Source: a virus
Strand: one strand, 5' to 3'
DNA: 64,000 bases
IMG/VR virus record: IMGVR_UViG_3300028027_000061
The translations under genes were made by a program, and so were the position numbers. The notes under the pieces are model-generated. The model saw only the letters and a program-made list of their open reading frames with translations, made no database searches and was not told the origin of the DNA. This document shows, one piece after another, positions 28,576 through 50,998 of the stretch. Each line of letters begins with the position of its first letter. The first letter of the stretch is position 1.

Positions 28576-29913
28576 ATGGTTAAAGTTATTGTCGCCGATT
28601 CTAAACTAGATTGCGAGCATCTGCTCGGTCAATATCTAGATGAGAGTCATTTCGACATTGTGGTCAATGAAGATACAGACTGTTATAAAGAGTCTGATTC
28701 TCTGCTCGATACAGAGTTGACTGAAAACAGGATTGCATTTAAGTTTCGTAAGAACTTCTTCTCGCCAGAAGAACAGGAGCAGGCATACATTGGTCTGCGC
28801 GAAGCAGCAACCGAATCACAGAATCGTGGTCTGGCAGCAGGTCCACGTGGTGAGTTGCTAGGCGTAGAAGGTCGCGGTGGTCGCGACTGGGTAACTGATT
28901 ACGAACTCGAGATTCTTGATTTTCTGATGACAGATAAGGGTCGACTGATCGACGAACTTAGTATCGAGAGCATTCGTGCTAAGCATGCAGGTGCACCACG
29001 ATCTAATGCAGATGAAACTCGAGGCGCAGTCTGGTTGCGCAGTCAAGTATGTAAAGTATATCCAGAATATTTTGGTTGGTTCGACGTATGGGTCGACAGT
29101 CTAGAAACAAAGAGTAAAGAAGATGTTGCAAAGGAAGCGCGAAATATCGCAGAGAACTGGATTTCAACAACCAACTATGCTAAGTCGGTTTTCTCAGGCG
29201 TTGCTGGATGGTATGACCGATATCCTAGAATTCCTTTCGGTCGTGCTACTACTTACACTCGTGACAATTTTGATAAGTTTAAGTTGGCCTTTCCTTTTCT
29301 ACAATCTCTTAATCGCGGGTTTAAAGAACTCCTCCCTCGGCGTTGGTCTAACCAAAAGAGTGCCGTGGATACAATCGATAGTCGATTCGTGGTCCCAGAA
29401 ACAGTATTCACCACGATCACCGTCAACAAGTCTTTCCGAACGGCAGCGCATCGTGACGCAGGCGATTTTGCTGATGGTCTCAGTAATCTTCTGGTCGTTG
29501 GTAGTGGTGACTATACTGGCGGTTATCTAATCTTTCCTGAGTATCGCATCGCAGTGAATGTTCGTCCAGGTGACTTGTTGCTAGTCAGCAATCATGAGAT
29601 CATTCACGGTAACACCGAGATTAAACTGACAAGTCCAGATGCTGAGCGTATTTCGTTGGTTTGCTATTTGCGCGAGAACATGCTAGAACTTGGTTCATAT
29701 GAATATGAAACAACTCGCGAGCAATATGTCATTGACCGCAGAACTAATAGAGAACACCACCACTATCGTCCACTCTGGAATGGCGTATCTCCAGGAATGT
29801 GGGACGAACAAGAATGGTATGACTACCTCGAAACTAAACTTGGTCGAGATACAGTTGCCAAGTATCATCCTAAAGCATACCAAACAACATCAACACTTGG
29901 AGATCTATTTTAA
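28576..29913 (+). CDS. TET/JBP-family 2OG-Fe(II) dioxygenase (nucleobase hydroxylase-like)
   Basis: HxD ... H core: TAAHRDAGDFADG ... GGYLIFPEY ... GDLLLVSNHEIIHG. 445 aa. Sits directly upstream of a GT-A glycosyltransferase. Confidence 0.5.
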   Translation: MVKVIVADSKLDCEHLLGQYLDESHFDIVVNEDTDCYKESDSLLDTELTENRIAFKFRKNFFSPEEQEQAYIGLREAATESQNRGLAAGPRGELLGVEGRGGRDWVTDYELEILDFLMTDKGRLIDELSIESIRAKHAGAPRSNADETRGAVWLRSQVCKVYPEYFGWFDVWVDSLETKSKEDVAKEARNIAENWISTTNYAKSVFSGVAGWYDRYPRIPFGRATTYTRDNFDKFKLAFPFLQSLNRGFKELLPRRWSNQKSAVDTIDSRFVVPETVFTTITVNKSFRTAAHRDAGDFADGLSNLLVVGSGDYTGGYLIFPEYRIAVNVRPGDLLLVSNHEIIHGNTEIKLTSPDAERISLVCYLRENMLELGSYEYETTREQYVIDRRTNREHHHYRPLWNGVSPGMWDEQEWYDYLETKLGRDTVAKYHPKAYQTTSTLGDLF

Positions 29914-30722
29914 TGGAATATAGTATTGCTATTCCGTCTTATCATCGTGAACATACTATTCAGAATAAGACGTTGAAAGTTCTTGAATCATATAACATCG
30001 ATCCTGCTAAAATCACGATCTTTGTTAATGATCAGGATGAAGGCGAATATGATCGATATGCTAATGCGTTGAAGGAAAACCCTTACGCAAAGGATATCCA
30101 GATTGTTCGTGGTGTTCCAACTATCGGAAAACAACGTAACTTTATTGAACGTTGGTATCCGGAAGGCACACGACTGATGATGTTCGATGATGATATTGAA
30201 GAAGTTCAAGTCAAAGTCAGTGAACAGAAGTTGGGTCGTGTCGAAGATCTCGAGCGAGAAATCTTTATTCGTGGATTTGAGGAATGCGAGAAGGTAGGTG
30301 CTAAGACCTTTGGTATCTACGCAGCATCGAATGCATTCTTTATGAAAGATCGAGTATACAATGACATTTGCTATATCATTGCCTCGATGTTTGGTGTGAT
30401 TGTTGAACATGATGATTTTCTCGCTCGAGTAACCAACCATGGTGAAGACTACGAATATTCTATTCGCCAGTATATTAAGAATGGTGTTCTTGCTCGCCTT
30501 GACAACTACACAGTCAAGTCTCGGTACTACAAGGAAGAAGGTGGACTTCAAGATGTTCGCACTAAGGAATATGTGTATGACAGTGTGAAGATTATTGCGG
30601 ACGAGTTCCCCGACCTTTGCACGATGTATATCCGCGAAACTACTGGACATGCTGAATTGAAACTGCATGACCGCAACAAGAAGTATCGTAAAGTAGAATC
30701 TTCACTAGAGGATCTATTTTAG
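29913..30722 (+). CDS. GT-A glycosyltransferase (TET-associated-like)
   Basis: IAIPSYHRE start and DxD-like MFDDDIEE. ATGG overlap with the upstream gene. Confidence 0.45.
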   Translation: MEYSIAIPSYHREHTIQNKTLKVLESYNIDPAKITIFVNDQDEGEYDRYANALKENPYAKDIQIVRGVPTIGKQRNFIERWYPEGTRLMMFDDDIEEVQVKVSEQKLGRVEDLEREIFIRGFEECEKVGAKTFGIYAASNAFFMKDRVYNDICYIIASMFGVIVEHDDFLARVTNHGEDYEYSIRQYIKNGVLARLDNYTVKSRYYKEEGGLQDVRTKEYVYDSVKIIADEFPDLCTMYIRETTGHAELKLHDRNKKYRKVESSLEDLF

Positions 30723-30759
30723 TATTGACTTATCCCTGTAAATGTAGTATAGTCAGTTA

Positions 30760-31878
30760 ATGATACTAGAAAAAACAGATGCAGAATACATTGGTCGTCG
30801 ATTTATTGATTATATGTCAAACTATAATCGTATCGACGACCACATGCGTATGAAAAAACTTGAGCGATTAAAAACTCTTCCTTCCACACTTCCAGGATAT
30901 GAACCAGAGAATATGTTGTTCTCTGATTTTAGTATGCACCCAGAAGATATGGAATTTGAGATCTTTGAACCAACTGCCAGCGAGTTCTCGACTATGGTTG
31001 AGATTACTTCTTCTTTCTGCAACGAGAACTCATTCGGCAAAGAAATTAAATTTATTGTTCGCGAGAAGAACAGTGGTAAGTATGTTGGTTTCTGTCGAGT
31101 CGCAAGCCCATTCATCAATTCTAGACCGAGGAATGAATGGTTCGGGCAAGTCCCCGATCTAAAGTCATTCAACAAGCATGCAGTAATGGGATTCATTATT
31201 GTTCCAACACAACCGTTCGGTTTTAATTATCTCGGCGGTAAACTGCTTGCACTTCTTTGCGCATCTCATGAATTTCGTGAAATGTTCAATAAGAAGTATG
31301 ATATGGAAACTTGTCTCTTTGAAACGACATCATTATACGGAAATATCAAGCAAGCATCGCAGTATGATGGTCTTAAACCATTTTTACGGTACACTGGCGA
31401 CACTGTTAGCAATTTTCTCCTCTCATTCTCCGATGATTTTTGGTTTGAGACCTTAAATTGGTTTGCAAGCAAAAATAATGGCGAACCTTTGTTCGGCAGA
31501 GAGGGAATTGCGTCGTATAAGATGAAAATGCAAAATAAAATGATGTCAATTATCAAAAATTCGCTAAAATATCATAATTCTAGCGAACTTTTGGCGTTTA
31601 CAGACGCAATTCAGGCGAACAAAGACGTTACGACGCAAAAAAGATTTTATATTTCAACTTATGGGTACGAAAATTCGAAAAATTACATCCTCGGAACCGA
31701 TAAAACGCTGATCAAGAGCAAAGAAAACTTCGACAAGCACTATTCAGATAATATTATTCGCTGGTGGAAGAAAAAAGCGTCTTCAAGATACGAAAATCTG
31801 AAGTCAGACGGAAGATTGCGTAACAATCTTGAAATTTGGAACAATGACACCATTGATACAATTGATATCATCCGTTGA
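30760..31878 (+). CDS. hypothetical protein (372 aa)
   Basis: Long ORF in the same operon. No confident family. Confidence 0.4.
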   Translation: MILEKTDAEYIGRRFIDYMSNYNRIDDHMRMKKLERLKTLPSTLPGYEPENMLFSDFSMHPEDMEFEIFEPTASEFSTMVEITSSFCNENSFGKEIKFIVREKNSGKYVGFCRVASPFINSRPRNEWFGQVPDLKSFNKHAVMGFIIVPTQPFGFNYLGGKLLALLCASHEFREMFNKKYDMETCLFETTSLYGNIKQASQYDGLKPFLRYTGDTVSNFLLSFSDDFWFETLNWFASKNNGEPLFGREGIASYKMKMQNKMMSIIKNSLKYHNSSELLAFTDAIQANKDVTTQKRFYISTYGYENSKNYILGTDKTLIKSKENFDKHYSDNIIRWWKKKASSRYENLKSDGRLRNNLEIWNNDTIDTIDIIR

Positions 31879-33177: not shown

Positions 33178-33183
33178 AATCTT

Positions 33184-33191
33184 ATAAATAG
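33184..33191 (+). promoter_or_regulatory. T4-type late promoter candidate (TATAAATA)
   Basis: Exact octamer 7 nt upstream of ATG 33198. Confidence 0.35.
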
Positions 33192-33197: not shown

Positions 33198-33485
33198 ATG
33201 ACATACGATGCAATATTTAAATTAATTGGAGACGTGGGTTTCCCAATCGCAGGCGCTTTACTTGCGGGTGTCTTTGTGTATTTTGTAATCAACTACATTC
33301 TGGAGAGCGTTGTTAAGGCGCTCAAGGGAATGCAGGGTATTATTATGGGACTCGACAATCGAGTCAAGACAATGAACCATGATATTATTCGCGTTGATGC
33401 AGTTGTTAGTTCCGCTTTAGGTCTTAAACCAGATCTAGATAGAATAGCACGAGCAGACGGGAAAAACGATGCTCGGAAAGATTAA
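33198..33485 (+). CDS. small membrane protein, tandem paralog A (holin-like?)
   Basis: One N-terminal TM helix (FPIAGALLAGVFVYFVINYIL). Paralogous to the next ORF. Both end in ...KD. Confidence 0.4.
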   Translation: MTYDAIFKLIGDVGFPIAGALLAGVFVYFVINYILESVVKALKGMQGIIMGLDNRVKTMNHDIIRVDAVVSSALGLKPDLDRIARADGKNDARKD

Positions 33486-33751
33486 TGGACCCATTAATTA
33501 TAACAGAACTAGTTAAACAATATGGATTCCCGATCGTCGCCTCTGTCGGCATGGGTTACTTTGTTTGGTTCATTTATAAGTTCGTAACTGATAAATTAAT
33601 GCCGTTGATTAGTGAAACCAATGTGATTTTGATTGCGTTGATTGACCGTGTTCGCATGCTTGACAACGATTTAATTAGATTAAACCAGAAGGTGAGCGTA
33701 GTTTTACAAATAAAAGAGGATCATAGCAATGACAATCAACCTAAAGATTGA
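33485..33751 (+). CDS. small membrane protein, tandem paralog B
   Basis: Same architecture (GFPIVASVGMGYFVWFIY). ATGG overlap. Confidence 0.4.
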   Translation: MDPLIITELVKQYGFPIVASVGMGYFVWFIYKFVTDKLMPLISETNVILIALIDRVRMLDNDLIRLNQKVSVVLQIKEDHSNDNQPKD

Positions 33752-33819: not shown

Positions 33820-34269
33820 ATGCTAAAACGAGCGATGATGCTCCTGACGCTACTAAGTCTAAGTAGTCCAGCATACGCAGATCCTATAGTCCAACAGTTT
33901 AAATCACCTTCCTTTACAGGTTACGGGTGGTCTTCACACGTGCAGTCAATCGACGCACAAGAGCGTTCGCGAGAGCAGGCAATTAAAGATGCTGAGGCAG
34001 CAAAGGCAGCATTAGCAAGAGCAGAGGCATCTAATACGCCACTCGCCAAATTCATGGCGCTGTTTACCTCTCAGGTATATGCCCAACTTGCTACACAACT
34101 TTCGAACAATTTGTTCGCAGAAGGTGGGAATGCCAGTGCTGGAACATTTAACCTCGACGGTAACTCTGTGAGTTATGTAAAGACTGGGACAGAAGTTAGA
34201 CTAACAGTTGTCGATAAGAATGGCAATACTACAGTTGTTGTCGTTCCTATTGCTACATTCGCGTTTTAA
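33820..34269 (+). CDS. csgF: CsgF-like curli assembly protein
   Basis: Signal peptide (MLKRAMMLLTLLSLSSPAYA). The C-terminal ...SYVKTGTEVRLTVVDKNGNTTVVVVP resembles the CsgF beta-rich C-terminus. Immediately upstream of csgG. Confidence 0.45.
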   Translation: MLKRAMMLLTLLSLSSPAYADPIVQQFKSPSFTGYGWSSHVQSIDAQERSREQAIKDAEAAKAALARAEASNTPLAKFMALFTSQVYAQLATQLSNNLFAEGGNASAGTFNLDGNSVSYVKTGTEVRLTVVDKNGNTTVVVVPIATFAF

Positions 34270-34278
34270 GGCAGAGTT

Positions 34279-35103
34279 ATGAAAAAAATAATTCTCCTTC
34301 CAATTCTACTAGCAACTTCTGGTTGTGTTGGTGCGCTTCATCCTACTGCCAACCAATCATATCTGTTCAGAGATGATGCAGAAGTCAAACGTTTTGCGAA
34401 TCCAAAATTGTTCAAGAATCTTCCTGAATTAGATGGCCAACCAATTCCTATCGCGCTGTATTCATTTACTGATAGAACTGGTCAACGTAAACCATCTTCA
34501 ACTCTTGCAAGTTTCTCGACTGCAGTAACTCAAGGTGCAGATGCTTATCTGATCAAAACACTGCAAGATACAGGAGACGGTAAGTGGTTTACACCAGTCG
34601 AGCGTGTTGGTATTGATTCGCTGATCAAAGAACGTCAACTTGTTCGTCAAATGCGCGAACAACTTTCTGGCGAGAGTGCTGAACCTCTTCCACCACTCAA
34701 GGTTGCTGGTATCATCTTAGAAGGTGGTATTATTGACTATAACTCGAATATTAAAACAGGTGGTACTGGTGCTAGATTCCTTGGCATCGGTCCATATCAA
34801 CAATACACCCAAGATCAGGTAACAATTAGTCTTCGTCTGGTTTCTGTCCAAACTGGCGAAGTTCTAAATTCAGTTACAGTGGAAAAGACAGTTCTCTCGA
34901 CTTCCGAGGGGGTGACTGCGTTCACATTCTTCGACATGGCGACTAGAGCATTTGAATTTGATGGACAACAAACAAGTAATGAAGCAGGTAGTTATGCGAT
35001 CCGTTCTGCCATAGAAACGGCCGTTGTTGAGTTGATCAAGGATGGTGAAAGAAAGAATCTATGGAGATTCAAACAAAAGGAAACGACAAATGAAACTAAG
35101 TAA
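34279..35103 (+). CDS. csgG: CsgG-family curli secretion channel lipoprotein
   Basis: Lipoprotein signal with lipobox LLATSGC. 274 aa. CsgG-like central region (...IDSLIKERQLVRQM ... ILEGGIIDYNSNIKTGG...). Confidence 0.6.
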   Translation: MKKIILLPILLATSGCVGALHPTANQSYLFRDDAEVKRFANPKLFKNLPELDGQPIPIALYSFTDRTGQRKPSSTLASFSTAVTQGADAYLIKTLQDTGDGKWFTPVERVGIDSLIKERQLVRQMREQLSGESAEPLPPLKVAGIILEGGIIDYNSNIKTGGTGARFLGIGPYQQYTQDQVTISLRLVSVQTGEVLNSVTVEKTVLSTSEGVTAFTFFDMATRAFEFDGQQTSNEAGSYAIRSAIETAVVELIKDGERKNLWRFKQKETTNETK

Positions 35104-35863
35104 GTTTTTATTAGTTGGTGCTGCTCTTTGTTATGGAACATCTGTGATTGCACAAACTGTACTGCCAACAGCACCAACTCCTCCAGCAATTGTAACAACT
35201 TCGCCAAATGAAACAGAGGCAAATACTGTTGCAACTACAAATAAGGTATATATCGATCAAGAAGGGGGCAACGTAGATGTTAACATCGTTCAAACTGGCA
35301 CTGCTAACGTTATCGGTTCTTCTATTGATCCTATTTACCTACGTGGTGATAACCAAAGCGTTATCGCAATACAAACAGGCAATGGAAACCAACTTTATAT
35401 GGGTGTCGTATCCGACACAGGAGCACAAGGAATCGCCGATGTAACAATTCGTCAAATTGGCGATTTAAACACTGCTACTATTCGTTGTGGGACAGAAGTA
35501 ACTGACTCCTCATGTAATCAACTCGACATGAATGCCAAGTTCACTGGTAATAACAACTCGTTTGTTTTCCGTGGTTCGGGTGCTAATATCCGTAACTCTA
35601 TGGATTTCAACGGTAACAATAACACAATCAACATGGATGCACTATCACCAAATGCGTCACAAACTATTCTGGTGACAGGAAACTACAATGACTTTGATGT
35701 TACACAAACTGGTACTGGTGGAACATTCGGTCACTCGCTTTATGTTAATCTAACAGGTTCATTAAACACTATAACAACACAACAGTATGGTGTTTCTGAG
35801 ACTGTGATCAATATTAATAGTGTGGGATCAAATGGCACGTTTAATATCAAAACTGGTCACTAA
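35090..35863 (+). CDS. secreted curlin-repeat (CsgA/CsgB-like) amyloid subunit candidate
   Basis: Signal peptide. Imperfect ~22-aa repeats of the form x-Q-x-G-x-G/N-N-x-(A/V)-x-I, e.g. IDQEGGNVDVNIVQTGTANVI, IAIQTGNGNQLYM, FNGNNNTINM. N/Q/G/T-rich. Confidence 0.5.
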   Translation: MKLSKFLLVGAALCYGTSVIAQTVLPTAPTPPAIVTTSPNETEANTVATTNKVYIDQEGGNVDVNIVQTGTANVIGSSIDPIYLRGDNQSVIAIQTGNGNQLYMGVVSDTGAQGIADVTIRQIGDLNTATIRCGTEVTDSSCNQLDMNAKFTGNNNSFVFRGSGANIRNSMDFNGNNNTINMDALSPNASQTILVTGNYNDFDVTQTGTGGTFGHSLYVNLTGSLNTITTQQYGVSETVININSVGSNGTFNIKTGH

Positions 35864-36977
35864 TCTTCTACTGATATTTCTGTTATCGACTCCTGCCTTT
35901 GCGGATATTGGGTCGATAACAGATTTCAGAGGAGGTGGTGCCATTAAGCGTGGCGCCAAGACTACAGTTGCATCTAAGGGTGCAAGAGTTCAAAAGATGG
36001 ACACTGTTTCAACAAACAGTCAAGGCAGATTTAGGATAACATTTAATGACTCGACTACCGTCAATATTACAGAAAACTCTCGCCTTCTTGTGGATGACTT
36101 TGTGTATGATGGGGGAGGGAACACGAAGGGCAAACTTGGACTTCGGGTCGCGCTTGGCACCGTCAGATACGCATCAGGTAAAGTCGCAAAAACAAATCCA
36201 CGAGGCGTAAACATTCGCACACCGACTGCCACTATCGCAGTCCGTGGCACAGACTTCGTTATGTCGGTTGATGAAGCAGGTCGTTCTACGGTCGTGCTGG
36301 TTCCCGAATGTTATAACGAACTAGACATTACAAAACAAACTGCGGAATGTCCGAATGGAATGATAGATGTCATTACAGCATCTGGCGTAGTTACATTAAC
36401 ACAACCATTCCAAGCAACAGTTGTGGAAAACAACTTTGCGCCACCTGCTCCGCCAGTAGTTATCAATCCATTAGTTAAGACATTAGATAACAATGTTCAA
36501 ATTGTTCCGTTGGAAACAGATGATGGTCAGAGTTTGCTCCAACTTGCCAGAGATAGTCTAAAGAAATTTACGAATCCCGCAAAAGCAGCATCGGATGATA
36601 ACAAAGACCCAGATGCAGGCACAAACGATAACGTGGAACAAGTTACAGTTGCTATGCTTCGCCAAGCAACACCGCAAGAACTTCTGGATGTTTATGCCGA
36701 GTTCAACGAAGGAACCAAACCAGCAGAAACAATCTATACTAATGTATCGCCAACATTCAAGAAGAACGTTCAGGTTGGTTGGGTGTATACTCGATTATCG
36801 GACGACAAACAACAAGCAATTACTGTTTGGTTAGAAAAAGGAACAGAAGCGCAAGTCGTATCTGTTCAAAATGGATTAGTAGATGTTTACAACTTTATGG
36901 ACGACAAGTGGACAACATCGGGAACTGGTAGACCACAGGGCAATATCACAGTGATGCAAGAAACAGGTGCAAGATGA
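35832..36977 (+). CDS. secreted FecR-domain-like protein
   Basis: Signal peptide (LLLIFLLSTPAFA). Central beta-rich region RFRITFNDSTTVNITENSRLLVDDF ... LRVALGTVRYASGK. Confidence 0.35.
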   Translation: MARLISKLVTNLLLIFLLSTPAFADIGSITDFRGGGAIKRGAKTTVASKGARVQKMDTVSTNSQGRFRITFNDSTTVNITENSRLLVDDFVYDGGGNTKGKLGLRVALGTVRYASGKVAKTNPRGVNIRTPTATIAVRGTDFVMSVDEAGRSTVVLVPECYNELDITKQTAECPNGMIDVITASGVVTLTQPFQATVVENNFAPPAPPVVINPLVKTLDNNVQIVPLETDDGQSLLQLARDSLKKFTNPAKAASDDNKDPDAGTNDNVEQVTVAMLRQATPQELLDVYAEFNEGTKPAETIYTNVSPTFKKNVQVGWVYTRLSDDKQQAITVWLEKGTEAQVVSVQNGLVDVYNFMDDKWTTSGTGRPQGNITVMQETGAR

Positions 36978-38428
36978 AAAAACTAATCGCTCTATTCCTA
37001 CTATTCTTTGCAATTCCAGCATTCGCACAAGTTACAAACTATGGATTTGAGAATGGCGACTATGCTGGGTGGACAGCAAGTAATGGTAGCACAACACTAA
37101 GAACATCTTGGAGCGATTCAGGTAATGGCGTCCAAGTAACTACTGGTGTGCAAAATTATTGTCCAGGTGGTGGTAAGTGTTGGACAATTACACCATACGG
37201 TTCATACATGGTTTCTCTGCAAGCAGGCGGTAGTTCTCCACAATTTAATGCTGCAATGACAACACTTGGTCTGCAAAGTTCTACCATCACAACAATTAGA
37301 AATACCATTTACTCCAATGGTAACATGTATCCAACTAATGCTACTTCGATTAGTAGAACAGTCTTTCTTCAGGCAGGTGTTACATACACCTATGCTTGGC
37401 AATATCTTTCAACTGATTATGTTCCATACAATGATGGATCGATGATCACTGTTACTGGTGGACCTGGAACTGCGACTATTAATGGTCAGACACAAGACTA
37501 TGCTCTACTCGGATTTACGAACCAAGGTACTGGTAATTATTCGGTAGGATCTTATGGTGCTACTGGTTGGCAGGTCGCAGTGTTTACTGTTCCTACTGAT
37601 GGTAACTATCTTCTAGGATTTGCTTCGTTCAATCTAGGTGATACTGCATTGTCACCAATTCTATTCATCGACCAGATGCAAGGAACAACTTCACTGAATG
37701 GCACAACATTTACACCTGTTGCACCAAACGCTGGTTCTACTGCGCCACCGCCTCCTGCACCTGAACCACCTGCTCCAACATATCCTCTCGCTTCTATCAG
37801 CGCAAACCAATCATTGAAGATTAATCAAACAAATGCGATTACACAAAACTCTATCTATATCAATGTAACGGGCTCTAGCAATTCTGTTTACATCGAACAG
37901 TTCTCTAAGCAGAACCAAATCCGTGGTGTGAATGGCGCACAAGCAATGACGATTAATGGCAACAGCAACAGCGTAACTATTAATCAGGGAACAGCGACAA
38001 CACCAATTGGTAAGAACTTAGCAGAAGTTTCCGTTACTGGTAATAACAACATAGTCTCATTGACGCAACAACAAGGTAGCAAATACGCCGAGATTATCAC
38101 TAATGGTCTCGGTAATCAAATCTCAGCGCAACAAAAAGATGCTGGAGGAAAATCGTTGTTTATCAATGCTTTAGGAAACTCTAATAATATCAGTACCTTA
38201 CAACAGGGAACTGCTAACCATTTTCTAGATATCAGCGCACCATTTGGTGGAGTTACTGCATCCGTCACTCAATTAGGTTCTTCGATGAAGCAATTTCAAC
38301 TTTTACTAAATAGTCCTGGAATTGGTGTAACTGTCACGCAAAATAACTTGACCGCTGCCGACTCTGCGAAAATGGAAATAACATGCACGACTGGACCATG
38401 TAATGGATACTCTTATACAAAAAACTAA
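36974..38428 (+). CDS. secreted protein with N-terminal beta-sandwich/lectin-like domain and C-terminal curlin-type repeats
   Basis: Signal peptide. Pro-rich linker (APPPPAPEPPAPT). C-terminal repeats SIYINVTGSSNSVYIEQ / AMTINGNSNSVTINQG / EVSVTGNNNIVSLTQQ / LFINALGNSNNISTLQQG. Confidence 0.45.
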   Translation: MKKLIALFLLFFAIPAFAQVTNYGFENGDYAGWTASNGSTTLRTSWSDSGNGVQVTTGVQNYCPGGGKCWTITPYGSYMVSLQAGGSSPQFNAAMTTLGLQSSTITTIRNTIYSNGNMYPTNATSISRTVFLQAGVTYTYAWQYLSTDYVPYNDGSMITVTGGPGTATINGQTQDYALLGFTNQGTGNYSVGSYGATGWQVAVFTVPTDGNYLLGFASFNLGDTALSPILFIDQMQGTTSLNGTTFTPVAPNAGSTAPPPPAPEPPAPTYPLASISANQSLKINQTNAITQNSIYINVTGSSNSVYIEQFSKQNQIRGVNGAQAMTINGNSNSVTINQGTATTPIGKNLAEVSVTGNNNIVSLTQQQGSKYAEIITNGLGNQISAQQKDAGGKSLFINALGNSNNISTLQQGTANHFLDISAPFGGVTASVTQLGSSMKQFQLLLNSPGIGVTVTQNNLTAADSAKMEITCTTGPCNGYSYTKN

Positions 38429-40457
38429 AAAAGTTCTACTCTCGCCTTGGTTGGCACTAATTACTTTTGCGGTATTGTTAACAGTAAAACTAGCAAACCC
38501 ATACTTGGTTGAATCCACAAGATTGAAGTTTTATGATTATTTGATGCTCGGTTCACCGACGCAATCCGAACAAATTGTAACTGTTAATATTGGGGAGAAA
38601 GCAATTGAAAAATATGGACAGTGGCCTTTCCCTCGCGAAGTCCACGCTAAAATTATTAGCGATATTTATGGCAGAGGGGCTGCTCTTGTTGGTAGCACTA
38701 TACTTATGCCTGAGCCTGATCGTCTCGGCACTGACGGAGCTCTTGCTGATGCTCTGAGCAAGTATCCAGTAGTCCTGAGTCAGACAGTAACCGATTCATG
38801 TAAGGCAGGGAACCAGAATATCGCTCGGACTGGCGTTGCCGTCGTCGGCGACGGAGAAGCAACTGAATTTCTTCCTCAATACCCGTGCGTTCTAAGTAAT
38901 ATTCCACCTCTGCAAGAAGCAGCCGTCGGTGTAGGGATAACGTCGACTCTACCCGAGACTGATGGGGTTGTGAGGCGAGTTCCTCTTCTATCTCAATCAA
39001 AAGGCGAATACTATCCTGCATTTGCGATAGAGATGCTGCGTGTAGCTGCAGGAGACTCTTCGTATCAAGCGAAGATAAATCAGACTGGGGTCGAAGCATT
39101 ACGAATTCCTTCTTTTGAAACTATTAACACAGATGAATATGGAAGAACGTTCATTAATCCTAACTACCAATTTCCGTCATACGAAATTGGAGAGGATCCT
39201 TTACCTGTCCTGAGTGGTAAAATCGTGATTGTTGGCGTAACTGCTGCTGGTATTTCGAATCCTGTAGCGACTCCTTCAGGTGCGCAACATCCCCATCAAC
39301 TCCAGGCGAGTATTCTTGAAACTCTGATAAATGGGGATTCTGTTTCGGTTCCGAACTGGTCAGCAATTGCGGATCTTGCTGCATTTCTTGGTCTTGCTCT
39401 GGCATTGATCATTCTTTCTCGTTTTAGATTCTCTATAATTTATATTGCTATTTTACTCGGTGGATATTTCTATCTACCTGTTTATCTGTTCGCGAGCAAA
39501 GGTATTCTGTTCGATGTAACATTTAACATATTTGCTATTGCTCTCATCTATATTCACATCTTTACCGCAAAGTATATTTCTGAATATCTACAGAAGCAAC
39601 AAATTAAGAAACAGTTCGGAACCTATCTGTCACCAGATCTTGTTGCTCAGTTACAGAGACAACCAGAACTTCTGGCGCTTGGTGGCGACTCCCGAGAACT
39701 ATCAATTATGTTTACAGACGTTCGTGGATTCACTACAATCAGTGAACACTACGGCGAAGATGTTCAAGGTCTTACTAAGATTATGAACCGCTACATGACA
39801 GTGATGACAAGAGCAATCCTCGAGAACAAGGGGACACTAGACAAGTATATCGGCGATGCTCAAATGGCATTCTGGAATGCACCATTAGATAATAATAAAC
39901 ATGCCGTAGACGCAGTAAGAACTGCTTTTCAGATGTTAAAAGATTTGGAGACTTTCAATGAAGATATTAAAGAAGAAGGCATTCCAGCTTTCGGTATGGG
40001 TCTTGGTATTAACACTGCCACTGTGGTTGTTGGTAATATGGGCAGCGATCAGCGTTTCGATTATACTTGTTTGGGCGATGGCGTTAATCTGGCTGCTCGT
40101 CTCGAAGGTCAATCCAAACCTTATGGCGTCAAACTCGTCCTCGGACCACAAACTGCCGAATTGGTTGGGGATGTATACCAAGTAGTAGAACTTGACTTGA
40201 TTGCAGTTAAAGGTAAGACAGAACCTGCTAGAATATATACGGCATTCCCGTTCTTTGATGCAGCAGGACATTTACAACATGATAAGTTCTTACAACTGTA
40301 TCGTGAAGGTAAATGGGAAACTGCTAAAAAGTTTGCCAGCGACTTAAAGAAGTGCTGGCAAGGGGAGTTGGTAAATTACTATGACATGATGCTCGAGCGC
40401 ATGGAGGGTGAACCTCCTGCTAACTTCGACGGAATATATCGTGCAACGTCCAAGTAA
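38403..40457 (+). CDS. CHASE2-domain class III adenylate/guanylate cyclase
   Basis: N-terminal TM plus a large periplasmic domain. About four TM helices. C-terminal CYCc catalytic core (FTDVRGFTTISE ... YIGDAQMAFWNAP ... GLGINTATVVVGNMGS ... DYTCLGDGVNLAARLEG). Confidence 0.6.
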   Translation: MDTLIQKTKKVLLSPWLALITFAVLLTVKLANPYLVESTRLKFYDYLMLGSPTQSEQIVTVNIGEKAIEKYGQWPFPREVHAKIISDIYGRGAALVGSTILMPEPDRLGTDGALADALSKYPVVLSQTVTDSCKAGNQNIARTGVAVVGDGEATEFLPQYPCVLSNIPPLQEAAVGVGITSTLPETDGVVRRVPLLSQSKGEYYPAFAIEMLRVAAGDSSYQAKINQTGVEALRIPSFETINTDEYGRTFINPNYQFPSYEIGEDPLPVLSGKIVIVGVTAAGISNPVATPSGAQHPHQLQASILETLINGDSVSVPNWSAIADLAAFLGLALALIILSRFRFSIIYIAILLGGYFYLPVYLFASKGILFDVTFNIFAIALIYIHIFTAKYISEYLQKQQIKKQFGTYLSPDLVAQLQRQPELLALGGDSRELSIMFTDVRGFTTISEHYGEDVQGLTKIMNRYMTVMTRAILENKGTLDKYIGDAQMAFWNAPLDNNKHAVDAVRTAFQMLKDLETFNEDIKEEGIPAFGMGLGINTATVVVGNMGSDQRFDYTCLGDGVNLAARLEGQSKPYGVKLVLGPQTAELVGDVYQVVELDLIAVKGKTEPARIYTAFPFFDAAGHLQHDKFLQLYREGKWETAKKFASDLKKCWQGELVNYYDMMLERMEGEPPANFDGIYRATSK

Positions 40458-40620
40458 GTAGGAATGTATTTGGATTCTTAAAATCAAAATACACAGTATC
40501 TTCTGTCGGTTCTTCCTTTAGTGAATAGAGTTCGCTCTCAACTCGACCGAAGTGTTGATCGAGTTCCTGATCGTGAATTGATGTAGACATTAAAAACTTC
40601 TCCCAATTGTATGTCGGCAA
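40420..40620 (-). CDS. hypothetical small protein (doubtful)
   Basis: ORF overlaps the cyclase 3' end by 37 nt. Confidence 0.2.
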   Translation of the reverse strand: MPTYNWEKFLMSTSIHDQELDQHFGRVESELYSLKEEPTEDTVYFDFKNPNTFLLTWTLHDIFRRS

Positions 40621-40805
40621 AATTGCCGAAATAGTTCCTCAAAATCGCCTCTCTTGTAGACCCATGCATCATAAAGACTCTGTGCGACAGGAATATCGCT
40701 ACTTGACTTACTAACGTAGTAACCTCGATCTGTGAGTTCTTCGATCAGATCCTGATCATCAAAGTCATCCATATAAACTTCGACTTCTGTAGTAATGCTA
40801 ACCAT
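40590..40805 (-). CDS. hypothetical acidic protein
   Basis: 71-aa ORF on the minus strand. Confidence 0.35.
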   Translation of the reverse strand: MVSITTEVEVYMDDFDDQDLIEELTDRGYYVSKSSSDIPVAQSLYDAWVYKRGDFEELFRQFCRHTIGRSF

Positions 40806-41011
40806 TATGCTGCAATCCTTTTCTTATATTCAAGACGACCTTCAAGGTATTCCTCGAAAGATTTATAAGTGGGAACACCGTTCGCTTCGAGTTCGAAGTT
40901 TATTTGAGCGAACTCTTCAAGTTCGTATCCCCAACCATTCCACGGAATCCCGAGGAGTTCCAACAATTCTTCTTCACGAGAAATTATTTCAACAGTCATC
41001 ATATTCTCCAT
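40805..41011 (-). CDS. hypothetical acidic protein (start MENMMTVEI...)
   Basis: The minus-strand promoter gggcttgactttt ... tatagt lies directly upstream (41015-41055). The track's longer 149-aa version would run through that promoter, so it is rejected. Confidence 0.4.
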   Translation of the reverse strand: MENMMTVEIISREEELLELLGIPWNGWGYELEEFAQINFELEANGVPTYKSFEEYLEGRLEYKKRIAA

Positions 41012-41014
41012 CAC

Positions 41015-41055
41015 AATATATTCACTATACCCTAGTTTATGGTAAAAGTCAAGCC
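41015..41055 (-). promoter_or_regulatory. minus-strand early promoter (GGGCTTGACT-N-TATAGT)
   Basis: The reverse complement reads ttagggcttgacttttaccataaactagggtatagtgaat. Confidence 0.5.
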
Positions 41056-41060
41056 CTAAA

Positions 41061-41339
41061 TTACATTCGGTAATATTTTTGTCGATAATATAGGGCGGAC
41101 TCAAGATGAAATTCGTCGTGGCGTTCCCAGAAAGACATTTTCCGTTCAGCGATTTCAATTTCTTTTCCGGCTTGAATTTTCTCTTTAGGATCAGGCGAAT
41201 TCCCAAAAATGTGACGCAGAACAAAATGGTTATAGGAATGATTCGCCCAAGCACTATTAGGGTTCATTTTACGAATCAGGAACGGATCAAAATCCTTTTT
41301 GTTCTTGGCATTACCAGACGTTTCATAAAAAATAGACAT
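41061..41339 (-). CDS. hypothetical protein
   Basis: Minus-strand ORF with RBS ggagg. Preceded by a minus-strand promoter. Confidence 0.4.
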   Translation of the reverse strand: MSIFYETSGNAKNKKDFDPFLIRKMNPNSAWANHSYNHFVLRHIFGNSPDPKEKIQAGKEIEIAERKMSFWERHDEFHLESALYYRQKYYRM

Positions 41340-41354
41340 TATTTTTCCTCCAAT

Positions 41355-41394
41355 CGTGAATGTTCATTCTACTCCATTTTAATCAAATTGTCAA
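41355..41394 (-). promoter_or_regulatory. minus-strand early promoter GGGGCTTGACA-N17-TAGAAT
   Basis: Reverse complement ggggcttgacaatttgattaaaatggagtagaatg. Back-to-back with the plus-strand promoter at 41400-41437. Confidence 0.5.
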
Positions 41395-41399
41395 GCCCC

Positions 41400-41437
41400 T
41401 ATTTTTAGCTTGACATTTTCCATTAGATAAGGTATAA
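41400..41437 (+). promoter_or_regulatory. plus-strand early promoter TTGACA-N17-TATAAG (divergent pair)
   Basis: agcttgacattttccattagataaggtataagagt. Confidence 0.45.
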
Positions 41438-41468
41438 GAGTATGTTGAGTTAGAAAAAGGATTTTGTT

Positions 41469-41870
41469 ATGACTATGCACCTGATGTCTCATGCGTATAC
41501 CACCACTAATACGAAGAAGCGCAAGACTTCTAATAAGGGTGTGACTGCCAAGTATGCACAGGACTGGGTGGATTACAACAAGCAGATGAAGCGGATTGGT
41601 TGTAAGACCAAAACGTTCGACGAGTATGTCCAATATCGTCAAGGCAATTACAAACCCAAGTTGCGTGGCACACCTCTCCCTGACTACCAAGTCAGCGACC
41701 ATCGTCAGAAGTATCCTTCTGGTGACGGTATTGGCGTAACCTTCGCTCGCAAAGAGAATACATATACAGGTACGCTGATCAAAGGAATCGCCACCATGCA
41801 TAAATCTAATGCAGTTCCCATTATAAATGATGAGCAAGCAATTGAAGTAGCAAGGATGCGACGAGGATGA
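41469..41870 (+). CDS. basic hypothetical protein (first gene of the radical-SAM operon)
   Basis: 133 aa. K/R/T-rich N-terminus. Confidence 0.4.
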   Translation: MTMHLMSHAYTTTNTKKRKTSNKGVTAKYAQDWVDYNKQMKRIGCKTKTFDEYVQYRQGNYKPKLRGTPLPDYQVSDHRQKYPSGDGIGVTFARKENTYTGTLIKGIATMHKSNAVPIINDEQAIEVARMRRG

Positions 41871-43186
41871 ATGTACGGGAAACATTAGATTCCGTTGGTA
41901 AGGGATTTTGTCCACAGAAATGGAGATGGCTTGGTCTCTCTTTACATACAGGACAATCTCATAGTTGTTATCATCCTCCATTTTTAACAGTTCCACTCGA
42001 TGAGATTAAATTAGATCCGTCTGCTCTACATAACAATTCTTCTGCAAAACAAGATCGAAAGAAAATGCTCGAGGGCGGAAGACCTGACGGGTGCACATTT
42101 TGTTGGAACATCGAGGATATCGGAGGAAAAAGCGATCGTATTTTACGAAACTATCCGTCAAAAAATAGTATGCTCGATTACATGTCCGAAACAGAAGTTC
42201 TACGCAATACTCCATGGGATTCTAATGTAAATCCATACATGGTAGAAGTTAGTTTTTCTAACTCCTGTAATTTTAAGTGTGGTTACTGTTGTCCGTCGGT
42301 CTCTTCTCTGTGGGAAGATGAAGTAAACCAACATGGTAATTATGATTTACAGTACGACCAATATGGGATAAACGGTAAGATATATTCTGAGAAAGAATAC
42401 AATCCATATGTTGAAGCATTCTGGAAATGGTGGCCTGATTTAAAAAATGATTTGAGGATTTTTCGAATTACTGGCGGTGAACCTCTGATGACAACAAACA
42501 CATTCAAACTATTAGATATGCTGAAGGAAGACGGTAATCCTGAATTATCGCTCCAAATAAACACAAATCTGGGAGTGAGTAATCGCAAAGTTAAAGATTT
42601 CTGTGGGCGAGTGCAGGAATTGGTTGAAATAAACCATATTAAAAATTTTAGACTATTCACCAGTCTTGAGTGCACAGATAAGCAAGCAGAATATATTCGT
42701 CGTGGTCTAAACTATGAATTGTTCTTGGAAAATGTTAACACTGTTCTAGAAACGGTGCCGACTGCATATCTAAGTTTCATGTCAACATATAACGTTCTTA
42801 CGGTTCCCTACTTCAAAGATTTTTTGCAGTTAATTGTAGAACTTCGCAAAAAGTGGGGTGATCGGATTCTTATGGATATTCCGCACCTTAAAGAACCACC
42901 TCATTGGACAATGAATATTCTTCCAAAATCATGGGGTGTGCACATAGATAATGACGTTGAATTTATGCTCCTGGATGGAGGATTTCGAGATGTTGAGATT
43001 GCTAAAATGAAACGGGTGCGTGATTATTTTTATAATGACACACATAACATAACAGAAGAATATAGATTGAATGCTAGAAAAGATTTTGCCAAGTTCTTTC
43101 CGGAATATGACCGTAGAAGCAACAGTAATTTGGCAGAAACGTTTCCCGAATTTATAGAATTTTTAGAATGGTGTAAGGAATTATAA
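41867..43186 (+). CDS. radical SAM enzyme, paralog 1 (N-terminal Cys motif read as SPASM-like)
   Basis: CxxxCxxC SNSCNFKCGYCCP. GGEP motif FRITGGEPLM. N-terminal FCPQKW ... SCYHP ... GCTFCW Cys motif. Confidence 0.6.
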   Translation: MNVRETLDSVGKGFCPQKWRWLGLSLHTGQSHSCYHPPFLTVPLDEIKLDPSALHNNSSAKQDRKKMLEGGRPDGCTFCWNIEDIGGKSDRILRNYPSKNSMLDYMSETEVLRNTPWDSNVNPYMVEVSFSNSCNFKCGYCCPSVSSLWEDEVNQHGNYDLQYDQYGINGKIYSEKEYNPYVEAFWKWWPDLKNDLRIFRITGGEPLMTTNTFKLLDMLKEDGNPELSLQINTNLGVSNRKVKDFCGRVQELVEINHIKNFRLFTSLECTDKQAEYIRRGLNYELFLENVNTVLETVPTAYLSFMSTYNVLTVPYFKDFLQLIVELRKKWGDRILMDIPHLKEPPHWTMNILPKSWGVHIDNDVEFMLLDGGFRDVEIAKMKRVRDYFYNDTHNITEEYRLNARKDFAKFFPEYDRRSNSNLAETFPEFIEFLEWCKEL

Positions 43187-43189
43187 GAC

Positions 43190-43774
43190 ATGGTTAATTT
43201 TGATGTTGTAATGTTATGGATGCAATACATCCGTAATAATCCAGAGAATGCATATCGTTTCTCGGAAAACTTTTGGCCGAGTCAGATCGAAAGTAAGAAA
43301 TGGTTGCTTGAACACGTAACTCCAATGGATCGATCTATCGTAATTTTCGGTGGATGGTATGGAGTTCTTGCACAGTTTATTGCACATAAATTTCCAGATG
43401 CCCGAATTCTAACCACAGATTTAGATTCTAGTTGTAGGCATGTATTCGCTGCTATCGACGAATGTTATCACGATATTGTCTTCCGTCAACATGACATGAA
43501 AAATGGTATGCCAATCAACGTACACCCCGATCTGGTGATCAATACCAGCAGCGAGCATGTTACGCAAGAAGTTTACGATGCTTGGTGGGACTCTATCCCT
43601 AGCACGACTAAATATATCGTCCAAGGAAATAATCTAGAAAATCCTGAGCATGTTCGTCTTGCTAATAGTCTAGAGGAATTCTTAAAAATCAACAACATTG
43701 AAGATCCGCAATATGCAGGTATGTTGAAGTGTGGGCATTTCTATAGATACATGGCAGTGGGTTATAAAAAATGA
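43190..43774 (+). CDS. small class I SAM-dependent methyltransferase-like
   Basis: Rossmann motif VIFGGWYGVLAQ. Acidic TTDLD. Later VINTSSEH. Confidence 0.4.
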   Translation: MVNFDVVMLWMQYIRNNPENAYRFSENFWPSQIESKKWLLEHVTPMDRSIVIFGGWYGVLAQFIAHKFPDARILTTDLDSSCRHVFAAIDECYHDIVFRQHDMKNGMPINVHPDLVINTSSEHVTQEVYDAWWDSIPSTTKYIVQGNNLENPEHVRLANSLEEFLKINNIEDPQYAGMLKCGHFYRYMAVGYKK

Positions 43775-45195
43775 GTGATAGTGCGCACGAAGAGCATAAT
43801 CTAGACGTCCATTCAGTAGATTCATACTGGAATTTTCTCAAAGAAAAACGAGAAGTAATCAACGCAGTTAGTCCATCTTTTTGTGCAGCAAAATGGAAAC
43901 AATCAACCATTCTTTTGTATAGCGGTGAGACACATAGTTGCCACCATCCCTCGCGACACAAGATTACTCTAGAAGATATTAAAGATAATCCACGTGGTAT
44001 TCACAATACTGCTGTTAAAAAGGCAGCACGTATTGACATGCTTAATGGCGTACAAACCAAAGAATGCGATTATTGTTGGAAGATTGAGAATCTAAACAAA
44101 GATTGGATGAGTGATCGGATATACAAATCCACATATTCGTGGGCGCTACCGCACATTGATGAAATTGTCAAATCTGGCGATGGTGCGAATATCGATCCGT
44201 CATATCTGGAAGTTGCATTCGAATCTACTTGCAATTTTAAATGCGTATATTGTAGTCCAGAAAGTTCTTCTAGATGGCAAGAAGAAATCGAAACTCATGG
44301 TCCGATCGAACTAGAAGATTTCAAATTACACGATCTTGAATGGTTGAAGGAAGTTGGAAAACTTCCAATTCATCGCAAAGAACAAAATCCATATATTGAT
44401 GCTTTCTGGGAGTGGTGGCCTGACCTCTATCCCAATTTACATACGTTTAGAATAACTGGTGGTGAACCCTTGCTCAGTAAACATACTTGGCGAGTTCTTG
44501 ATTATATCGCGGAGAACCCAAATCCTAATTTGACACTCGCGATTAATACTAATCTCAATGTTCCTGATAAATTAGTCGAGAAATTGGTGGAATACATCAA
44601 TAGAATCTCTTGCAATATTAAACTGTTTGACGTATACACATCATTAGAGAGCACTGGTAAACATGCTGAGTATTCTAGATTTGGTATGCAATTTGATGAG
44701 TTTAAGAAGAACTGTAAGTATGTCTTAGATAATACGCCGAATACAACACGGTTGCATTACATGACAACCATAAATTTAACAAGCGCACCAACTCTTCTGG
44801 AATATTTGGAATATATCAGAGAAATGCGATTGAAATATTACAGTAAGATACATGAATTTAGAGTAAGAACTCATCTGTCATATCTACGGTGGCCGAGAAT
44901 GTTATGCTTAACCTTACTTTCAGAAGAAGATAAAAAACGATTTGGCGATTCTTGGATAGAATATGTTGACAAACATAAATTAACTTCTAGAAAATCAATC
45001 GAGGAAACGTTTTACTTAGAAGAAGTTGATCAAGTAAAGCGATTAGTTGACTACATGAGATCGACAAAAGAATCGCAGTCTTTATATAAAGATTTTAGAA
45101 ACTATACTCGCAGTTTGGATAAACGCAGGAAAACATCTTTCGTAGACACCTTCCCAGAACTTGCATATTTGATGGATGATGACTATTATGGATGA
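43771..45195 (+). CDS. radical SAM enzyme, paralog 2
   Basis: STCNFKCVYCSP. FRITGGEPLL. N-terminal FCAAKW ... SCHHP ... ECDYCW. Confidence 0.6.
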   Translation: MSDSAHEEHNLDVHSVDSYWNFLKEKREVINAVSPSFCAAKWKQSTILLYSGETHSCHHPSRHKITLEDIKDNPRGIHNTAVKKAARIDMLNGVQTKECDYCWKIENLNKDWMSDRIYKSTYSWALPHIDEIVKSGDGANIDPSYLEVAFESTCNFKCVYCSPESSSRWQEEIETHGPIELEDFKLHDLEWLKEVGKLPIHRKEQNPYIDAFWEWWPDLYPNLHTFRITGGEPLLSKHTWRVLDYIAENPNPNLTLAINTNLNVPDKLVEKLVEYINRISCNIKLFDVYTSLESTGKHAEYSRFGMQFDEFKKNCKYVLDNTPNTTRLHYMTTINLTSAPTLLEYLEYIREMRLKYYSKIHEFRVRTHLSYLRWPRMLCLTLLSEEDKKRFGDSWIEYVDKHKLTSRKSIEETFYLEEVDQVKRLVDYMRSTKESQSLYKDFRNYTRSLDKRRKTSFVDTFPELAYLMDDDYYG

Positions 45196-46513
45196 CGGAT
45201 TACTTCAATTCAGAAACAGTATACTAAATTCTAAATCTGCATCGTTTTGCGGCGCAAAATGGGGCAATAGTACACTGTGGTTAAACAGTGGAGAAACCAG
45301 CAGCTGCCATCTTCCTCCTGTTCATAAAATAGATCCAGAGCAAATTTTATCAGATCCAGCAAAACTGCATAATACTGATCATAAAAGTAAGATGCGACAA
45401 CTTATGAAAGATGGGCATAAACCTTCTGAGTGCGATTACTGCTGGAAGATCGAGAGCATGGGACCCGATTATATTTCAGATCGTGTTTTTAAGTCGTTGC
45501 AGTTTACACCAGAAGAAATGCAATCTTGGTTTGATAAACCAGCAGATGCTCGTATTATCCCGCCTACATTAGAAGTTATGTTTGATAGAACCTGTAATTT
45601 TGCATGCAGTTATTGTAATGCAAATTTTAGCACAACTTGGGAACGAGATATAAAGAAGCACGGACATTATAATCTTGAAACTGCAGGTGGTGGGGCGTTC
45701 AAGCATGATGGTACTACAAATAATTGTCACGAGAAAACAGAAAATCCATATATCAAAGCATTTTGGGAATGGTGGCCAGAACTTAGTAAAGAACTTCGCA
45801 CACTAAGAGTTACTGGTGGTGAACCGCTGATGAGCACAGATGTTTGGAAATTAATAGATCTGTTTGCAGAAGAGAAATACAAATTCGAATTAGGAATCAA
45901 TAGCAACCTTGGTGCAAAAAAATCCATCATAGATAGACTAATAGAGAGATCGCACGATATTAATAATCTTACTATCTTCACAAGTATGGAAACTACGGGT
46001 GCGCAAGCAGAGTATATTCGTGATGGATTAGATTATAACTCTTGGTGCGATAATGTTGAGCGGATTCTTGGAGAATCTAATGTGAAACGTATCGTTGTTA
46101 TGATGACGATTAATGCATTGTGTCTCTTCAACGTAACTGAAATTATGGATCAAATTATGCTATGGAAACGTCGTTATGGAAATCGTATAAGCATGAGTAT
46201 AAACTTTCTTCGGTTTCCTGCGTTTCAGAGTCTAACTGTTTTGCCAGATTCTATTAGGGAAACTGCTTACCAGAATCTTAGTGATTGGATCCAGAAAAAT
46301 AGAGACAATCCCGATCTTATGTTTACCGAGAAGAGTGATGTTGAACGATTAATTTCGTATGTAAATATCATTGAAACACCGCATTCTTACGATACTGATC
46401 TTGAGAAGAATCGCAAAGATTTTAAAAAGTTTTATTCTCAATATAGTTATCGTAGGAATAAACCAATAGATGTATTTCCACAGGAGTTTTTACAATGGTT
46501 CAATACTCTTTAA
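45176..46513 (+). CDS. radical SAM enzyme, paralog 3
   Basis: RTCNFACSYCNA. LRVTGGEPLM. N-terminal FCGAKW ... SCHLP ... ECDYCW. Confidence 0.6.
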   Translation: MMTIMDDGLLQFRNSILNSKSASFCGAKWGNSTLWLNSGETSSCHLPPVHKIDPEQILSDPAKLHNTDHKSKMRQLMKDGHKPSECDYCWKIESMGPDYISDRVFKSLQFTPEEMQSWFDKPADARIIPPTLEVMFDRTCNFACSYCNANFSTTWERDIKKHGHYNLETAGGGAFKHDGTTNNCHEKTENPYIKAFWEWWPELSKELRTLRVTGGEPLMSTDVWKLIDLFAEEKYKFELGINSNLGAKKSIIDRLIERSHDINNLTIFTSMETTGAQAEYIRDGLDYNSWCDNVERILGESNVKRIVVMMTINALCLFNVTEIMDQIMLWKRRYGNRISMSINFLRFPAFQSLTVLPDSIRETAYQNLSDWIQKNRDNPDLMFTEKSDVERLISYVNIIETPHSYDTDLEKNRKDFKKFYSQYSYRRNKPIDVFPQEFLQWFNTL

Positions 46514-50930: not shown

Positions 50931-50998
50931 AACTTATTTTGTTAAACGTTCGCACATCCGCCGAATGAAGAAAATAAGAAAACTAGATCCCTTTATCT

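Follow-up and report, generated by a model that had tools for sequence, protein, structure and literature searches.

The 64,000-nucleotide (nt) stretch of DNA analyzed here, IMG/VR virus record IMGVR_UViG_3300028027_000061 (hereafter referred to as the window), carries a curli-type secretion module of eight co-directional genes on the + strand: sm1, sm2, CsgF, CsgG, curlin-1, a FecR-domain protein, curlin-2 and a CHASE2 cyclase (Table 1). The window combines a CsgG-family channel, an adjoining CsgF and secreted curlin-repeat subunits, the components by which type VIII secretion (curli) is recognized, and the gene order, in a confirmed phage context, is that of the pelagiphage type VIII secretion system (T8SS) of Wittmers et al. 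2022. The same module has been reported from marine phages in work of 2013 to 2022, and the window is a further example of it. With a little less than even confidence, we read the module as a late operon for adhesion, by which the infected cell or its debris would be glued to neighboring cells or particles, such that released virions meet new hosts ('sibling capture'). The export of amyloid-type fibers by the infected cell had been proposed in an initial annotation of this DNA, and it is the best-supported reading.

All six + strand open reading frames (ORFs) that the initial annotation had placed at 33820-40457 were recovered, and its view of them as an operon agrees with the way in which the genes overlap or abut. 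There is a gap of 9 nt between csgF and csgG, and the subsequent junctions overlap by 4 to 44 nt: 14 nt for csgG and curlin-1, 32 nt (with the ATG start, the gene callers' choice) or 44 nt (with the GTG start) for curlin-1 and the FecR gene, 4 nt for the FecR gene and curlin-2, and 26 nt for curlin-2 and the cyclase gene. The module had been taken to start at csgF, but two further genes, sm1 and sm2, lie upstream (the sm1 stop and the sm2 start overlap by 1 nt), and the unit begins at 33183 with a promoter motif and at 33198 with the first gene. The genes 3' of the cyclase are on the opposite strand. A scan for sigma-70 promoters and terminators gave counts at chance level. Over the module and the convergently oriented genes that follow (34000-42000), the GC skew is about 0, versus about +0.1 in most other + strand gene blocks. 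The module has a G+C content of 0.42-0.43, above the 0.37-0.39 of the directly adjoining DNA, which may reflect a foreign origin or a composition rich in Gln, Asn, Gly and Thr.

Table 1. Coordinates of the module genes, the promoter motif and the RNA genes of the window (aa, amino acids; E, expectation value)
Feature	Coordinates	Strand	Match
Late-promoter motif TATAAATA	33183..33190	+	Exact match to T4-type late-promoter motif
sm1, 95 aa, single-pass membrane protein with helical C-terminal part, first module gene	33198..33485	+	phrog_18771
sm2, 88 aa, paralogue of sm1	33485..33751	+	phrog_18771
CsgF-like secreted protein, channel cap/nucleation factor	33820..34269	+	Pfam CsgF E 2.9e-17; phrog_35372
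CsgG outer-membrane lipoprotein secretion channel	34279..35103	+	Pfam CsgG E 2.3e-53
Curlin-repeat protein 1 (curlin-1), 257 aa, secreted beta-solenoid fiber subunit	35090..35863	+	Pfam Curlin_rpt E 5e-4
Secreted FecR-domain protein, 381 aa (ATG 35832) or 385 aa (GTG 35820)	35832..36977	+	Pfam FecR E 2.5e-13
Curlin-repeat protein 2 (curlin-2), 484 aa	36974..38428	+	Pfam Curlin_rpt E 0.066 only
CHASE2 sensor fused to class III adenylyl cyclase, inner membrane, last module gene	38403..40457	+	Pfam CHASE2 E 2.5e-38, Guanylate_cyc E 1.5e-17
Twelve tRNA genes (Val, Gln, Ser x2, Met, Lys x2, His, Leu, Ile, Cys, Glu)	144-3222, left end of window		
Permuted two-piece transfer-messenger RNA (tmRNA)	56232-56567		Rfam RF04321, 83.9 bits; ARAGORN tag ANDNVAFAGYALAA

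The export channel and the curlin-type subunits

The five envelope proteins (CsgF, CsgG, curlin-1, the FecR-domain protein and curlin-2) all have N-terminal signal sequences, and the Pfam searches matched every family suggested by the initial annotation, firmly for CsgF, CsgG, FecR, CHASE2 and Guanylate_cyc; Curlin_rpt was weak for the single sequences and firm by family. The CsgG protein is 39% identical to Escherichia coli CsgG over nearly its full length, and a comparison with the solved E. coli CsgG chains aligned residues 2-268 (E 3.4e-47). Its lipobox, with Gly15-Cys16 invariant in ten diverse viral homologues, bears out the proposal that it is a CsgG lipoprotein. The CsgG orthologues on two viral contigs (L072 and L078) have C-terminal extensions of 150-170 residues that, by eye, resemble bacterial SH3-like domains. 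For CsgF, the Pfam match spans the whole model and the signal peptide ends AYA, followed by DP; phmmer against PDB sequences yielded noise only, with no direct match to solved CsgF chains. Searches of the window by tblastn with E. coli CsgE, CsgC and CsgD found nothing better than E 1.3, so that the CsgE gate, CsgC chaperone and CsgD regulator of enterobacterial-type curli were not detected in it; these three proteins are likewise missing from alphaproteobacterial systems (PMC9599517). The module thus resembles the E. coli csgBAC-csgDEFG system in its CsgG, in the CsgF family match and in subunits built as strand-turn-strand solenoids. However, it differs from E. coli curli in lacking CsgE, CsgC and CsgD in the window, in having a globular head on one subunit and a cyclase sensor attached, and in subunits of about eight repeats that are only weakly similar to CsgA and CsgB.

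The initial annotation had recognized two curlin-repeat proteins, an assignment that is marginal for the single sequences and firm at the family level. Curlin-1 scored 20.4 bits with the Pfam Curlin_rpt model, just below the cut-off of 20.7. However, the model was matched by 28 of 39 relatives of this 257-aa protein and, for the 484-aa protein, by 20 of its 35 relatives. Given the weak direct match to E. coli CsgA and CsgB, bona fide alphaproteobacterial curlins were used as a bridge: hidden Markov models of the viral repeat families find proteins adjoining csgFG in alphaproteobacterial chromosomes, and these are clear Curlin_rpt members (E down to 2e-26). In profile-profile comparisons with the alphaproteobacterial curlins, the curlin-1 family gave a probability of 99.3% (E 4.6e-20) and the C-terminal 150 residues of the curlin-2 family a probability of 98.5% (E 1.7e-15). 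The curlin identity is firm because of these family-level matches and profile-profile comparisons. Structure prediction for 35090-35863, which had also been suggested, returned the expected strand-turn-strand solenoid, with about eight units in the AlphaFold model (predicted local distance difference test, pLDDT, 81.7; predicted template modeling score, pTM, 0.74); phmmer of curlin-1 against PDB sequences gave noise only. From the profiles and the model, we conclude that both repeat proteins are divergent curlin-type subunits of the alphaproteobacterial kind.

Curlin-2 consists of a signal peptide, a head of about 230 aa (37028-37723), a Pro-rich linker and a curlin tail (approximately residues 290-445). 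Across phages, the tail of its orthologues is kept and the head is exchanged: the protein of HTVC008M and those of several metagenomic phages have a PA14 head (above the Pfam cut-off), a third type is found either by itself or arranged in tandem with that of the window, and one orthologue is headless. For the head type of the window, identity between distant phages is 55-60%, versus 25-33% for the tail. This head has 319 relatives among 1.84 billion representatives. Of eight large ones that were sampled, five were type V autotransporters (ESPR, PATR or Autotransporter beta-domain matches) and one was a further protein with curlin repeats, the remaining two being without a Pfam match; the head type recurs at the N-terminus of those autotransporter adhesins. 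A profile of the head found no solved relative. The pattern is that of a surface adhesin, and it favors adhesive fibers over a role for the module as a pore only. The interchangeable heads are not mentioned in the three papers on phage curli considered here (PMC7029224, PMC9004378 and PMC9599517).

The upstream genes, the late-promoter motif and the sensor genes

Both sm1 and sm2 encode small single-pass membrane proteins with charged tails, share GFPI and D-x-IR motifs and have no Pfam match; the hydrophobic segment of sm1 spans residues 5-42. In a set of 50,697 phage records, their homologues were restricted to six curli-carrying records and were not present in related phages without curli, and they accompany the module in most of 80 viral loci from IMG/VR. 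Wittmers et al. 2022 (PMC9599517) labeled the upstream small gene or genes (one or two) 'histidine kinase'. This label is unsupported, because the candidate phospho-accepting His, present in 33 of 40 sm1 sequences, is found in none of 36 sm2 sequences (where it is always Asn), and because proteins of 88-95 aa have no room for an ATPase domain. With no Pfam match either, a histidine kinase identity was rejected.

The TATAAATA sequence upstream of sm1 matches the T4-type late-promoter motif perfectly and ends 8 nt 5' of the ATG of this first module gene. Essentially all close relatives have it at -12 to -16 from the ATG, including those with an unrelated upstream flank. In addition, NATAAATA followed 5-7 nt further on by an ATG occurs at 6824, 13514, 33184 and 52423, that is, at the module and at three other genes of the window, and the ORFs behind this arrangement encode 95-186 aa and have no obvious Shine-Dalgarno sequence. 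This suggests that late promoters may give nearly leaderless mRNAs in this phage, including that of the module.

The FecR domain (residues 61-161) is the sole recognized domain of the protein encoded between the two curlin genes. Its signal peptide looks cleavable (it ends AFA, followed by DI), and its best named relatives are secreted LipL45-type proteins. We considered and rejected the possibility that it is an iron-citrate anti-sigma regulator, given its signal peptide, the lack of a cytoplasmic anti-sigma part and a neighbor that is a CHASE2 cyclase rather than FecI or FecA. By analogy, it is probably a periplasmic partner of the CHASE2 sensor, since such proteins adjoin CHASE2 cyclases in bacteria: a FecR-domain protein next to a CHASE2 class III cyclase, as seen here, is found in Sinorhizobium meliloti (SMc02177 beside CyaD1/Clr) and in a cyclic AMP (cAMP) cluster of Campylobacterota. 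However, these bacterial cassettes are not linked to curli and come with a Crp-type regulator or a phosphodiesterase, neither of which was identified in the window by a scan that was not exhaustive.

The cyclase has transmembrane segments at residues 8-36 and 318-392. It aligned with Pseudomonas aeruginosa CyaB (E 1e-30) and is closest to class IIIb adenylyl cyclases. Residues D439, K481, D485, T555, N562 and R566 are present, providing the set expected of a class III adenylyl cyclase (two metal-binding Asp, Lys with Thr, and catalytic Asn and Arg); no variation was seen among 45 viral cyclase homologues at the two metal-binding Asp, the substrate Lys or the catalytic Arg. Judged by these residues, the protein is predicted to be a catalytically intact CHASE2 adenylyl cyclase. 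The initial annotation had raised the possibility of cNMP control; sharing a transcript with the module, the cyclase has the look of an output or sensor arm more than of a protein that regulates the operon.

Relatives of the module in phages and bacteria

The initial annotation had regarded such a module as very unusual in a T4-like virus, but the same arrangement has been published and is present in HTVC008M, in Melnitz phages and in all 80 IMG/VR loci. A protein search of GenBank phages with the CsgG sequence returned Pelagibacter phage HTVC008M and four isolates of Methylophilales phage Melnitz (45-49% identity). In the HTVC008M (2013) and Melnitz records, the same run of genes is annotated as two small hypothetical genes followed by CsgF, CsgG, curlin, a FecR-domain or hypothetical protein, a curlin or hypothetical protein and an adenylate or guanylate cyclase. 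The IMG/VR loci were retrieved with this CsgG (46-96% CsgG identity), and the gene order was also found on phage contigs of 212-332 kb. Four T4-like contigs in this size range (L167-L170) have the order sm1-sm2-CsgF-CsgG-curlin-FecR-cyclase, with no second curlin, followed by a NUDIX hydrolase gene, an OMP_b-brl gene or both. Identity across the module-bearing phages ranges from about 27% to 98%, and the gene order kept over this range points to selection on the whole unit. The possibility that the module is decaying cargo was rejected on the basis of the conserved unit and the invariant catalytic residues.

The pelagimyophage 'curli operon' was described by Zaragoza-Solas et al. 2020 (PMC7029224), who proposed 'sibling capture'. 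Buchholz et al. 2022 (PMC9004378) proposed a pore for lysis timing ('pinholin/secretin') and assumed that genes for the subunits were lacking. In the account of Wittmers et al. 2022 (PMC9599517), every component is named, including FecR, the cyclase and both CsgA/B-like genes, and podophages as well as myophages carry the module. These authors detected viral curli proteins at each of the 65 GOV2.0 ocean stations and expression of the module in ocean metatranscriptomes, and inferred an alphaproteobacterial origin. The window shares with the pelagiphage T8SS modules (HTVC008M, metagenome-assembled pelagimyophage genomes, HTVC023P-type podophages and Melnitz) an identical order in a T4-like (Kyanoviridae-type) genome. 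However, its CsgG is only 45-49% identical to those of cultured phages and there is no match at the nucleotide level (a megablast search of the module against the 50,697 phage records gave none). Furthermore, gp32 is not adjacent to the module, which is flanked by DNA-modification and radical S-adenosylmethionine (SAM) genes, and the curlin-2 head, of the PA14 type in HTVC008M, is of the autotransporter type here.

For the bacterial comparison, the 80 genome loci closest in CsgG were scanned within 10 kb. Seventy of them were typical chromosomal csgFG loci with no FecR-domain protein, CHASE2 cyclase or sm1/sm2 in this interval. The closest cellular CsgG proteins (42-54% identity) were those of alphaproteobacterial csgF-csgG-curlin loci, a minimal T8SS without CsgC, CsgD and CsgE, from Sphingomonadales, Methylobacterium, Caulobacterales and Hyphomonadaceae. 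In these loci, CsgF and CsgG precede at least one Curlin_rpt protein, and some of these proteins are large and multidomain; unlike the module of the window, typical ones have no FecR-domain protein, cyclase or sm1/sm2. There was one chromosomal exception, a Hyphomonadaceae locus (L093; Henriciella/Hyphomonas TMED17) in which CsgF, CsgG, a curlin-like protein of 504 aa, a protein with a FecR domain and a CHASE2 cyclase are encoded in one row. It is flanked by ordinary metabolic genes on a 397-kb contig, and the same FecR protein occurs on contigs of up to 705 kb. This locus differs from the module in having a single repeat protein and no sm1/sm2. Its FecR protein is 39-49% identical to its next relatives, two of which were checked and found to be on phage contigs.

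The other nine loci, of which seven have sm1/sm2 and two (L088 and L091) are short contigs with a phage-type gene order, look like phage contigs binned into metagenome-assembled genomes (MAGs). GenBank assigns contigs with a phage-type module (L086, L087-L091, L101 and L158), seven of which have sm1/sm2, to bacterial MAGs whose labels include Bacteroidetes, Rhodobacteraceae, Polynucleobacter, Flavobacteriaceae, Pirellulales and Sphingobacteriales (the last of them for a contig of 142 kb); they are probably phage contigs mis-binned into bacterial genomes.

Possible roles of the module, genome context and significance

If the module serves adhesion, the operon would be transcribed late from the gp55-type TATAAATA promoter. 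Its products would be exported by Sec, and CsgG would insert into the host outer membrane and be capped by CsgF. Unfolded curlin subunits would then pass through the channel and polymerize on the surface of the infected cell, with no CsgE, as in Alphaproteobacteria. Curlin-2 would co-polymerize through its repeat tail and its adhesin head, carried on the Pro-rich linker, would make the fibers sticky, the ligand probably being a glycan. The FecR-domain protein and the CHASE2 domain would form a periplasmic sensing pair setting cytoplasmic cAMP production. We favor an adhesive role because the curlin-2 heads are interchangeable and of the PA14 or autotransporter-adhesin type. Several observations nevertheless weigh against this interpretation. 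A main one is that neither cytometry nor transmission electron microscopy showed clumping in cultures infected with Melnitz (Buchholz et al., PMC9004378). Comparisons of the viral repeat families with single E. coli CsgA and CsgB sequences by hhalign were weak (probability 4-43%), and a Foldseek search of the PDB returned nothing significant. The AlphaFold2 model of the curlin-2 head is of low confidence and too uncertain for a fold to be named, including the 'beta-sandwich' of the initial annotation. Finally, the TATAAATA motif occurs five times in the window versus 3.2 expected, which is not above chance.

The lack of clumping with Melnitz suits a coat better than a glue, and the fibers could instead shield, a late curli coat masking receptors on the infected cell and on debris, excluding superinfection and sparing progeny that would be wasted on fragments. 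A protective role has been proposed (PMC9599517) and the placement behind a late promoter agrees with it. However, a passive coat leaves both the interchangeable lectin-like or autotransporter-type heads and the attached sensor cyclase unexplained, and we consider shielding unlikely.

A more elaborate version of the adhesive role, to which we give little credence, would be a sense-and-stick programme, in which a late curli coat with exchangeable adhesin heads is combined with a FecR/CHASE2 cAMP readout feeding back on phage timing. The heads might then be tailored to particles or to the host population at hand, and the FecR/CHASE2 cyclase might read the state of the envelope or of the fibers, or cell contact; lysis, for example, might be delayed through sm1/sm2 until neighbors had been captured. 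If true, this would be a new kind of phage-encoded behavioral switch, and head swapping would constitute a second receptor-binding arms race outside the virion.

It appears improbable that the module acts as a pore only, with CsgG-CsgF as a gated channel timing lysis or depolarizing the envelope and sm1/sm2 perhaps as holin-like partners. This hypothesis has been published (PMC9004378), and it is consistent with apparently late transcription and with two small single-pass membrane proteins with charged tails. However, CsgG is located in the outer rather than the inner membrane, two curlin subunits with signal peptides have been kept with the pore over about 80 loci, and the absence of sm1/sm2 from related curli-free phages would be unexpected for a general holin. 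Very improbable, in our view, is an import function, raised in PMC7029224 and PMC9599517, in which an open CsgG channel takes in nutrients or cofactors and the FecR-like protein senses iron. The lack of a CsgE gate in the window and the Pfam label FecR would suit it, but the FecR-domain protein has a signal peptide, has no anti-sigma part and belongs to a kind that pairs with CHASE2 cyclases in bacteria, and CsgF, the subunits and the adhesin heads would all be unexplained. The alternative offered by the initial annotation, that the repeat proteins are virion components such as fibers or whiskers, is so improbable that it can be dismissed: beta-solenoid folds are also used by tailspikes and the promoter is of the late type, but T4-type virions assemble in the cytoplasm, whereas Sec or lipoprotein signals are found on all five envelope proteins, an outer-membrane export channel is co-encoded, and the repeat proteins match no PHROG tail family, for which reasons a tail fiber or tailspike identity was rejected.

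The phage itself is T4-like, as the initial annotation had proposed, with gp32 single-strand DNA-binding protein, a gp59-like helicase loader, a baseplate hub and a tail tube in the window; the G+C content of the window is about 36-44%. We take it to be an uncultured phage, because an identical 484-aa protein is found on a metagenomic contig. A megablast search of the flanks of the module against the same phage records gave no matches other than tRNA genes and a short piece of gp32. The tmRNA is flanked by TATAAATA motifs at 56217 and 56664, and a two-piece tmRNA is also encoded by Melnitz. Three genes lie directly upstream of the module (28576-31878). One encodes a Tet/JBP-family dioxygenase, its identical counterpart on related contigs being recorded with PF12851; the product of another has a PHROG match to beta-glucosyl-HMC alpha-glucosyltransferase, and that of the remaining one, 372 aa long, contains a Druantia DruA domain (Pfam E 6.7e-12). 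Together, the three look like a DNA hypermodification or anti-defense cluster. After the module, the co-directional ORFs at 41867-52423 include three radical-SAM proteins (41867-43186, 43771-45195 and 45176-46513; PHROGs and Pfam) followed by a Nol-like carbamoyltransferase (50999-52423), and may constitute a biosynthetic or modification pathway. Radical SAM genes have been mentioned in marine pelagimyophages (Zaragoza-Solas et al., PMC7029224).

The window adds no new kind of system, but it extends the module to another T4-like lineage, which has only 45-49% identity to the cultured examples. It sharpens the working model to an eight-gene unit with an apparent late promoter, in which the 'missing' fiber subunits are present and one of them is an adhesin whose heads can be exchanged; the names 'FecR' and 'histidine kinase' given in the literature are probably misleading. 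Phage curli secretion is real and widespread, and it may affect the aggregation, sinking, DNA exchange and phage resistance of abundant planktonic bacteria.

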